Assembly: GCA_020725105.1 (NCBI GenBank)
Contig: DYFQ01000006.1
Location: 2,392 to 66,391, forward strand
Reading direction: 5' to 3'
From: Symbiobacterium thermophilum
GTDB taxonomy: Bacteria; Bacillota; Sulfobacillia; DYFQ01
Length of the DNA stretch: 64,000 bases
This document shows, one piece after another, positions 19,116-19,604 of this stretch. The translations under genes were made by a program, and so were the position numbers. Numbering within the stretch: position 1 is the stretch's first letter; each line of letters begins with the position of its first letter. Under the pieces are notes generated by a model, which ran no database searches, had not been told where the DNA came from, and was given only the letters and a program-made list of their open reading frames with translations.

Positions 19116-19241
19116 CAACGCGATGCCTCCTCCGTGGCGGTGCACGGCTGCGAAAGGGCCAGCAAACGGAAGCGCCTCCCGCCCCGGCTGGGGACGGGAG
19201 GCTGCCCGCGGTACCACCCCGATTGATAAAGCCACCGTTAC
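19116..19241 (-). promoter_or_regulatory. T-box riboswitch 3' portion (T-box sequence plus terminator/antiterminator) in the leuS leader
   Basis: mRNA reads AAUCGGGGUGGUACCGCGGG (plus strand cgcggtaccacc at 19207-19218), followed by the hairpin CCUCCCGUCCCCAGCCGGGGCGGGAGG (19175-19202) and a U-containing tract. Only 22 nt separate it from the tRNA-Ala 3' end, so no Stem I fits between them. Confidence 0.6.
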
Positions 19242-19316
19242 GGTGGAGCTGACGGGATTCGAACCCGTGACCTCTTGAATGCCATTCAAGCGCTCTCCCA
19301 GCTGAGCTACAGCCCC
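19242..19316 (-). tRNA. tRNA-Ala (anticodon GGC)
   Basis: Minus-strand sequence GGGGCUGUAGCUCAGCUGGGAGAGCGCUUGAAUGGCAUUCAAGAGGUCACGGGUUCGAAUCCCGUCAGCUCCACC. It has the G3:U70 Ala identity pair and anticodon loop AUGGCAU; CC of the CCA end is encoded. Confidence 0.9.
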
Positions 19317-19574
19317 GAGCGACCTTATCCGCTCGAACCCGCTAACGCCGGGCTGGGCGGCTGGCGCTACCGGGCCGTGACGACCCCTGGCGCCATCGGC
19401 TCGCGGGCGAGTTCAGCCCGACCGTCCCCACCGGCCTCGCACCTTCCGGCCGGCTCTCTTCGGGGGGATCCGGACCTACTGCTCCCGCGCATCGCCGTTG
19501 GTTTTCCGGCCCGCACCGGAGCCCGGCGGCATCCGCGCGCCAGTCCGGCTGGCCGGCTGGGTTTCCGGCAACTC

Positions 19575-19604
19575 ATTATAGGCGAGGCTTTTCTGGAGTG
19601 TCAA
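19575..19604 (-). promoter_or_regulatory. Sigma-A-type promoter TTGACA-18-TATAAT firing toward tRNA-Ala/leuS
   Basis: Minus strand reads cTTGACActccagaaaagcctcgccTATAATgag. The predicted TSS is ~250 nt upstream of the mature tRNA-Ala 5' end. Confidence 0.4.

Follow-up and report, generated by a model that had tools for sequence, protein, structure and literature searches.

T-box riboswitches are the textbook case of one RNA reading another, and their discriminator, including Stem III, has been solved structurally. Leader cleavage is known from Staphylococcus aureus, where RNase III cuts the met leader, and co-transcription of tRNA and mRNA from the Escherichia coli thrU-tyrU-glyT-thrT-tufB operon and from mitochondrial tRNA punctuation. 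Here we describe a T-box leader of leuS: in a stretch of 64,000 nucleotides (nt) of Symbiobacterium thermophilum DNA (contig DYFQ01000006.1 of assembly GCA_020725105.1; the whole stretch is called the window below) a T-box upstream of leuS harbors a tRNA-Ala(GGC) gene within the loop of its Stem III.

The T-box discriminator includes Stem III as an integral part with a variable stem and loop, and the basal G-U pair of antiterminator helix A2 is described as the steric sensor of the aminoacyl group (PMC7583486); the RRRNG-Stem III-AA motif has been defined in PMC7583486 and PMC7778990. Large lineage-specific insertions as well as leader cleavage are tolerated by other T-boxes (PMC7913692). The same paper cites two examples of leader processing, namely the Bacillus subtilis thrS leader, which is cut upstream of the terminator with a stabilising effect on the mRNA (Condon et al. 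1996), and the pbuE adenine riboswitch, where RNase P cleavage stabilises the mRNA (Seif and Altman 2008).

The closest described system is the canonical leuS T-box (RF00230; B. subtilis type with CUC specifier), with which the leader studied here shares the elements, their order, the regulated gene and the specifier: Stem I with specifier loop and distal platform, a predicted Stem II plus Stem IIA/B, RRRNG-Stem III-AA, UGGNACC, the A2 G-U pair and the terminator. Unlike in the canonical leader, the Stem III loop is not a few nt long but a tRNA-Ala(GGC) of 72-74 nt plus linkers; moreover, the promoter is of consensus, tRNA-like strength and the leader would double as a tRNA precursor. As in T-boxes with lineage-specific inserts, the linker or discriminator accommodates a large additional structured element, and T-box function would be kept. 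Those inserts are, however, genus-specific hairpins without a separate product, whereas here the gene for another amino acid's tRNA lies inside Stem III in several phyla. Like the processing of the thrS, pbuE and met leaders, the processing proposed here would cut the leader from the read-through mRNA and alter its 5' end and stability, but cleavage would occur at genuine tRNA ends, would be obligatory and would yield a useful product. With the known tRNA-mRNA units the locus probably has in common the shared promoter and the separation of tRNA from mRNA through RNase P and 3' processing; the tRNAs of those units are neighbours of the mRNA, whereas here the tRNA lies inside a regulatory fold that must act before excision. 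None of the known systems compared puts a separate functional gene inside the sensing domain.

Judged from its sequence, the region between promoter and leuS is an intact Leu-specific (CUC) T-box leader whose Stem III loop holds a genuine gene for tRNA-Ala, and promoter, T-box and tRNA probably belong together as one transcription unit, composed of a strong promoter, an attenuating Leu T-box and a functional tRNA-Ala(GGC) in the loop of Stem III. All leader elements lie on the minus strand of the window (Table 1). When Rfam was run in E-value mode on 19050-19700, RF00230 aligned end to end (model positions 1-219) over 19501..19187 with 70.9 bits (E 2.4e-15); a run of the whole window at the gathering threshold reported no T-box. 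The alignment contains a single insertion of 91 nt, located in the apical loop of Stem III and consisting of the tRNA and short linkers. In this alignment Stem I carries the AGUA motif, the AG bulge AGAGA, the distal loop GGAAGGUGCGA and the specifier loop GAA-CUC-G, and its long helix was recovered by minimum free energy (MFE) folding. The F-box-like CGGCGUUA in Stem IIA/B matches the RF00230 model, and both hairpins of the Stem II region are present in the MFE fold.

On the 3' side of this region the discriminator elements were found as GAGCG-GAUAAGG...CUUUAUC-AA, UGGUACC, the basal G-U pair of A2 and a competing terminator. Antiterminator helix A1 is formed by 19220-19217 with 19193-19190 and helix A2 by 19209-19205 with 19198-19194; the 7-nt bulge UGGUACC occupies 19216-19210 and the basal pair of A2 is G19209-U19194. 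The terminator-like hairpin (19202-19174) has 12 bp, 10 of them G-C, and is the only such site within 18900-19900. It overlaps the 3' strands of A1 and A2, so that terminator and antiterminator are mutually exclusive. The nested tRNA scored 68.9 bits with the Rfam tRNA model (cut-off 29) and folds into a cloverleaf with conserved D and T loops; its A73 is followed by CCG (ACCG, not ACCA), so that CCA is incompletely encoded. Upstream of the leader, the promoter matches the consensus at 12 of 12 positions and is the one consensus promoter of the searched region (18900-19900), for which shuffled sequences average 0.1 sites. The downstream gene encodes a protein with HMGH and KMSKS-type motifs that, read from ATG 19115, is 100% identical to a database protein (P0001, with Pfam tRNA-synt_1 family domains); its homologues carry the name leucine--tRNA ligase, and P0001 aside no relative exceeds 64% identity.

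A preliminary description of the locus, made from the sequence letters, had named the canonical tRNA-Ala(GGC), the strong promoter at 19575-19604 and the T-box sequence plus terminator hairpin ahead of leuS, and each of these was recovered (ARAGORN 19316..19242 and Rfam 19316..19244 for the tRNA). It had also noted that no space is left for a Stem I between the tRNA and the T-box sequence, in line with the position of Stem I upstream of the tRNA. The T-box sequence itself (GGUGGUACCGCG, 19218..19207) is as close to the tRNA as described, although it begins 23 nt past the end called by ARAGORN rather than 22 nt. Other details needed correction. The element GGGAGCAGUAGG, likened to Stem-I distal motifs, turned out to belong to the base of Stem I and the specifier loop, on their 5' side (AGUA motif). 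Within GGGC-UGAACUC-GCCC, CUC (19411..19409) is the Leu specifier as suggested, but the supposed hairpin is the 3' side of the specifier loop. Similarly, the 250-nt structured segment postulated upstream of the tRNA is structured in its Stem I and Stem II part (RF00230) but not in the GCCGG-rich part of about 65 nt that separates the likely start site from Stem I (19568-19502). This part does not fold better than shuffles (z -1.05), and in a MAFFT alignment of the 185 nt 5' of the tRNA from 105 loci the stretch before Stem I shows no conserved consensus. A separate structured RNA in the GC-rich 5' segment (19570-19495) was rejected as a candidate given its z of -1.05 against shuffles.

The arrangement is widespread. 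One genome per species (GTDB) was scanned with the pattern GGTTCRANTCC-N{22,52}-GGTGGNACCGCG, i.e. a tRNA T-arm followed 22-52 nt on by a T-box sequence. The scan yielded at least 120 loci and the true distribution is wider; the conservation counts below come from the matches listed. ARAGORN placed a tRNA-Ala(GGC) immediately 5' of the T-box sequence in 109 of 121 regions, the window included. Three further regions are the same arrangement cut at the locus edge, and nine are chance matches or ordinary sequence. Altogether, about 112 listed loci share the tRNA-Ala(GGC)/leuS T-box, and no other tRNA species nested in a T-box occurred among the matches listed. A leuS gene follows within 1.8 kb in 105 of the 121 regions, its product being 49-66% identical to the LeuS of the window. 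According to the record titles the carriers belong to Chloroflexota (Thermomicrobiales, Sphaerobacteraceae, Limnocylindria, Chloroflexia, Anaerolineae, Caldilineae, Thermoflexales, Ktedonobacter), Bacillota (Syntrophomonadaceae, Thermosyntropha, Peptococcaceae, Thermacetogeniaceae, Desulfofundulus, Desulfitispora), Armatimonadota, Coprothermobacterota and Caldisericota. Among cultured carriers are Thermaerobacter (CP132508.1), Thermosyntropha lipolytica DSM 11003, Desulfitispora alkaliphila DSM 22410 and Desulfofundulus thermosubterraneus DSM 16057; OY970217.1 and OY969424.1 are, like CP132508.1, complete genomes with the element.

In all 14 of 14 diverse relatives tested, a full-length RF00230 match enclosed the tRNA, and three of the 14 scored above the gathering threshold despite the insert. 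Assignment of Stem I in relatives is based on Rfam matches; when the 185 nt 5' of the tRNA from 105 loci were analysed with MAFFT and RNAalifold, the alignment (432 columns) was gappy and yielded almost no consensus structure, and its motif consensus alone was used. The specifier motif CUC stands at the same relative place in 106/106 loci, and a hairpin with T-run 3' of the T-box sequence is present in 94/108. Four relatives (L062, L074, L113 and L120) have short leaders, probably without Stem II. CCA is encoded straight after A73 in 87 of the 109 nested copies. The distance from A73 to the T-box sequence ranges from 12 to 36 nt, and the linkers between Stem III and tRNA vary widely in length. 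In three loci (L052, L099, L117) the bulge reads UGGC instead of UGGU and the nested tRNA-Ala retains A73. The Rfam model of transfer-messenger RNA (tmRNA) gave sub-threshold matches (39-42 bits, cut-off 47) on the nested tRNAs of L001, L006, L010, L027, L062, L072, L089 and L113, and a further sub-threshold match on a separate upstream tRNA (L049, 1785-1860). Such matches are expected on tRNA-Ala and do not mark tmRNA genes, because tmRNA has a tRNA-Ala-like domain.

Both the tRNA and the T-box parts that flank it show compensatory evolution. Pairs were counted on a MAFFT alignment of 107 loci, with the structure taken from the window. Stem III shows two-sided changes at 7/7 pairs. The four helices of the nested tRNA are paired in 100% of cells, with many compensatory changes; the acceptor pair 3:70 is G-U in 107/107 loci, the anticodon GGC is invariant and A73 is present. 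G3:U70 and A73 are identity elements for alanyl-tRNA synthetase (AlaRS), and the nested tRNA carries both. Helix A1 is paired in 93% and helix A2 in 99% of cells, the basal pair of A2 being G-U in 96 and G-C in 11 of the 107 loci. Overall, 95.9% of cells are paired, compared to 43-52% when the partners are slid by 1-3 columns, and the covariation score of 0.424 was reached by none of 500 shuffles (shuffles 0.157). A cleaner subset of 24 sequences gave the same picture. Individual calls of Stem III and linkers by RNAduplex and free helix search were dropped since they produced inconsistent registers, 55/107 of them beside RRRNG.

The nested tRNAs comprise 60 distinct sequences that are 75-96% identical to the tRNA of the window. 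Their divergence correlates with that of LeuS (Mantel rho 0.376, a value reached by 0/999 permutations), and the LeuS fragments form two clusters, one largely labelled Chloroflexota and the other, which includes the window, largely labelled Bacillota. This correlation and clustering point to co-inheritance rather than repeated capture of the tRNA.

The preliminary description had left two readings of the locus side by side and had proposed to compare related genomes. Such comparison shows that the arrangement recurs, with covariation. The first reading, a T-box split by an embedded tRNA, is supported by the full-length RF00230 match with its one 91-nt insert and with the same layout in about 112 listed loci. 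The second, a 250-nt non-coding RNA running into a T-box remnant, is rejected in view of the conserved discriminator elements (RRRNG-Stem III-AA, UGGUACC, A2 G-U pair, terminator). A complete T-box confined to 19116-19241, for which an Rfam check had been suggested, is not what Rfam returned: the T-box spans 19501..19187, around the tRNA.

Table 1. Elements of the leuS leader and leuS in the window.
Feature	Position	Strand	Basis and remarks
Sigma-70-type promoter TTGACA-18-TATAAT	19575..19604	-	Consensus match; -35 = 19604-19599, -10 = 19580-19575
Pre-Stem I leader, GC-rich, GCCGG repeats	19502..19568	-	Without conservation
T-box Stem I	19398..19495	-	RF00230 alignment, model positions 7-103
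Specifier codon CUC (Leu), then purine G19408	19409..19411	-	Sequence and RF00230 alignment
Stem II (~19395-19362) and Stem IIA/B (~19359-19343)	19343..19395	-	Rfam alignment; predicted
Purine string GAGCG (RRRNG) 5' of Stem III	19330..19334	-	Sequence; GAGYG is the consensus of 107 loci
Stem III 5' strand GAUAAGG	19323..19329	-	Pairs with 19231-19225
tRNA-Ala(GGC) gene in Stem III loop	19244..19316	-	Rfam tRNA; ARAGORN end = 19242
Stem III 3' strand CUUUAUC	19225..19231	-	Followed by conserved AA at 19224-19223
Antiterminator	19190..19220	-	RF00230 alignment
Intrinsic-terminator-like hairpin and weak U-tract	19164..19202	-	Consensus match
leuS	16602..19133	-	Ribosome-binding site GGAGGAGG 19133-19126; start TTG 19118 or ATG 19115; stop codon ends at 16602

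Promoters were surveyed by consensus matching (at least 10 of 12 positions) in the 94 loci with enough upstream sequence. A promoter-like site was found in 58 of them, many matching at 12/12 positions, and it usually ends 175-225 nt before the nested tRNA, just 5' of Stem I. In loci with a tRNA-Ala(CGC) ahead of Stem I this distance is 270-345 nt, and in four short leaders it is about 125 nt. Closer than 125 nt upstream of the nested tRNA, no promoter-like site was present in the 94 loci, and no terminator was found between tRNA and T-box sequence.

The additional tRNA-Ala(CGC) is located directly 5' of Stem I in ten loci, mostly of Anaerolineae and relatives (L052, positions 3467-3539, as well as L032, L033, L049, L060, L063, L071, L073, L079 and L087). 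The order there is tRNA-Ala(CGC), 5' part of the T-box, tRNA-Ala(GGC), 3' part of the T-box, leuS. In most of these loci the sole strong promoter-like site precedes tRNA-Ala(CGC), and L063 also has the usual site upstream of Stem I. Given this order of promoter and genes, the riboswitch is woven into a tRNA operon. In L014 and L017 (Peptococcaceae/Thermacetogeniaceae) the nested tRNA is preceded at 325-343 nt by a 12/12 promoter, and there is no tRNA-Ala(CGC); L017 has a second GAACUCG motif at -196. These two leaders may contain an extra or tandem leader element.

A free-standing tRNA-Ala(GGC), 96% identical to that of the window, was found on metagenome contig Ga0209581_1007873 (L130, about 3584-3658, minus strand). 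Inspection by eye shows a TATAAT hexamer some 14 nt 5' of this gene and a terminator-like hairpin immediately 3' of it, and the nested copies have neither. The contig, which stems from another organism, was the sole one to match 50 nt of the window tRNA in the metagenome scan; the collection scanned does not include the window's own contig, so that the scan is uninformative on copy number.

Relatives that lack parts of the arrangement show which parts go together. In Thermaerobacter (CP132508.1) rsfS, a T-box with nested tRNA-Ala(GGC) and leuS follow each other with the same synteny as in the window; the T-box is full-length and the insertion lies likewise in the Stem III loop. In a Limnochordales genome leuS is preceded by a CUC T-box that contains no tRNA and whose Stem III is small and ordinary, and in Moorella thermoacetica, Calderihabitans and two others leuS has neither T-box nor tRNA (4/4 sampled). 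Since leuS loci without a T-box lack the tRNA and the Limnochordales T-box lacks it too, the tRNA is, among the relatives sampled, tied to the T-box and not to leuS as such, and a T-box can exist without the tRNA. In the Limnochordales leader (L126, 1150-1462) Stem II is enlarged by an insertion of about 81 nt, another route of expansion in this leader family. Translations read by eye revealed further genes between leader and leuS in some relatives: a GNAT-type acetyltransferase of about 190 amino acids (e.g. L011, L021, L056), ilvE encoding branched-chain aminotransferase (L019, L045, L070, L076, L078, L083, L090) and an acyl-CoA-synthetase-like (AMP-binding) gene (L036, L084).

Several observations speak against the assignment of the locus as one unit with an intact T-box. 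The score of the window T-box (70.9 bits) is below the Rfam gathering cut-off of 93. However, the 91-nt insertion is penalised; the low score is a scoring artefact of this insert, and no element is missing. The U-tract of the window terminator is weak (GCUUCCGUUU). Stem III cells are paired only in 80.7% (107 loci) to 84.3% (24 loci), a shortfall that is probably due to MAFFT misalignment of the variable linkers. In 36 of the 94 loci, mainly from Limnocylindria and Chloroflexia, there is no consensus promoter. Finally, in the MFE fold of tRNA plus discriminator in the window, Stem III and the acceptor stem lose out to local hairpins (CGAGCG/CGCUCG and CCACC-GUAAC-GGUGG); this was put down to the limits of MFE prediction on tRNAs, and the fold was not used. 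The local complementarities concerned (19317-19336 across the 5' linker and 19232-19246 just 3' of the tRNA) are absent from relatives.

The weak score and the 36/94 loci without a recognisable promoter upstream of Stem I would also fit two adjacent independent units, i.e. a tRNA with a promoter of its own next to a Stem I region or downstream T-box that is a decaying remnant. This is hard to reconcile with the lack, in the 94 loci, of any promoter-like site in the 125 nt that precede the nested tRNA, with the lack of a terminator between tRNA and T-box sequence, and with T-box elements that covary or are conserved on both sides of the tRNA where LeuS is only 49-66% identical; moreover, the truly free-standing copy (L130) looks different, with its close TATAAT and the hairpin directly downstream. 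We regard independent units as very improbable. The same low probability is given to a role in cis, in which the nested tRNA would pair its own A73-CCA with the UGGU bulge and drive or modulate antitermination independently of tRNA-Leu. A73 is complementary to the U of UGGU and 87/109 copies encode CCA after A73, but the window encodes ACCG rather than ACCA, three loci combine a UGGC bulge with an A73 tRNA, and the universal Stem I with its CUC specifier would be senseless unless tRNA-Leu is the ligand. In addition, ACCA sits at the far end of Stem III (7 bp as modelled in the window), often with few linker nt, which probably makes the reach sterically implausible. That the insert is a tRNA-like structural domain or pseudogene, never released or charged, is extremely improbable: the sub-threshold Rfam tmRNA matches lend it no direct support, as they are expected from the tRNA-Ala-like domain of tmRNA, and against it stand the canonical cloverleaf with its 68.9 bits, helices that pair in 100% of cells with many compensatory changes, the lack of variation at G3:U70, A73 and GGC, and the CCA that 87/109 copies encode.

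More serious is the reading in which the switch uses the nested tRNA as a working part instead of carrying it as a passenger, which we consider unlikely. It could be a clamp or timer for the folding of Stem III; programmed cleavage by RNase P or RNase Z could set leuS mRNA stability, with the terminator hairpin or the tRNA itself left as a protective 5' structure; or leuS could be coupled to the capacity for processing tRNAs or to the control by growth rate that tRNA promoters typically show. However, the Leu T-box of B. subtilis leuS works without a nested tRNA, and leuS of the Limnochordales relative has a Leu T-box with a small Stem III hairpin and no tRNA. The variable linkers between Stem III and tRNA and the spacing of 12-36 nt between A73 and the T-box sequence oppose a precise structural role, and the conservation could merely reflect an essential tRNA gene that cannot be lost. 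In favour of a working part, about 112 listed genomes across phyla have the same position, always with the Stem III loop, the GGC isoacceptor and a Leu T-box. Also consistent with it are the about 90 nt of transcription that the insertion adds between tRNA-Leu capture and the decision point, the tRNA-like promoters (often 12/12), the absence of the tRNA from the sampled leuS loci that lack a T-box (4/4), and the precedents of thrS (cleavage upstream of the terminator stabilises the mRNA) and pbuE (RNase P) cited in PMC7913692. It is possible, if doubtful, that excision of tRNA-Ala by RNase P and 3' processing is a programmed irreversible second step that destroys the sensor once each decision is made and fixes the 5' end and lifetime of the leuS mRNA, and that co-transcriptional folding of the tRNA nucleates and times assembly of the discriminator. 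Riboswitch output would then be gated by the tRNA-maturation machinery, and tRNA synthesis would be tied to the promoter of a synthetase.

For the preferred reading, a single transcription unit with a functional tRNA-Ala(GGC) within an attenuating Leu T-box, we infer from sequence as follows that tRNA and leuS are transcribed together, in which order decision and processing occur, which nucleases act and how mRNA stability may be affected. During transcription, Stem I and Stem II would capture tRNA-Leu, after which the polymerase would make first the 5' strand of Stem III, then the entire tRNA-Ala and finally the other Stem III strand; the closed acceptor stem of the nested tRNA would juxtapose both strands. 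If the bound tRNA-Leu is uncharged the antiterminator would form, if it is charged the terminator, and leuS would be produced only under low charging of tRNA-Leu. In some relatives the regulated unit would be ilvE-leuS, GNAT-leuS or acyl-CoA-synthetase-like-leuS. Terminated and read-through transcripts would each contain one tRNA-Ala precursor, so that output of tRNA-Ala would track promoter activity and output of leuS would be conditional.

Release of tRNA-Ala would require RNase P and 3' processing; in the window the latter is probably carried out by RNase Z, because CCA is not encoded. Processing would follow the termination decision and would sever Stem I and Stem II from the remainder. 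The decision most likely precedes cleavage, since the decision point lies only about 70 nt past the tRNA; prior cleavage would disconnect Stem I from the discriminator. The 5' end of a read-through leuS mRNA would thereby be shifted to a point closely upstream of the terminator hairpin.

The nested tRNA bears on the timing of the decision versus RNase P, on the sensing of aminoacylation on a Stem III stacked on a tRNA and on the stability of leuS mRNA, and the layout bears on the choice of tRNA-Ala(GGC) alone and of the Leu T-box alone. The layout of a tRNA within a T-box appears to be undescribed, its elements (T-box, tRNA-Ala) being known: no description of a tRNA gene nested in a T-box was found in full-text literature searches, with an earlier mention in the major comparative T-box papers being possible. 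The Rfam gathering threshold misses the window, 11/14 of the relatives tested and Thermaerobacter. With leaders below the threshold, annotation will therefore show a tRNA standing alone ahead of leuS, without a riboswitch, and T-box surveys may arrive at too few Leu T-boxes for Chloroflexota and deep-branching Bacillota.

Elsewhere in the window, a thiamine pyrophosphate (TPP) riboswitch at 28876-28983 (plus strand) scored 64.8 bits, above its gathering score. The open reading frames that follow it on the same strand (28968-29624 and 29621-30367) look by eye like genes for a membrane protein similar to the ThiT thiamine transporter and for a thiamine pyrophosphokinase, and the whole looks like an ordinary thiamine salvage unit. 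The only other tRNA found in the window by ARAGORN is tRNA-Ser(GGA) at 9361-9451 (minus strand). A prkA - DUF444 (yhbH-like) - spoVR cluster occupies 10823-15288 (minus strand), with Pfam matches made on an identical metagenome contig; the exact proteins of this cluster occur in JGI metagenome 3300029892, and the cluster suggests a spore-forming, Bacillota-like organism. The organism has about 71% G+C; in most of the window the G+C content is 0.70-0.74, and it falls to 0.62-0.63 at 56001-64000. This part encodes ABC permeases (BPD_transp_2), and on a matching metagenome contig an aldehyde:ferredoxin oxidoreductase gene adjoins the matched permease; the region may be acquired DNA.

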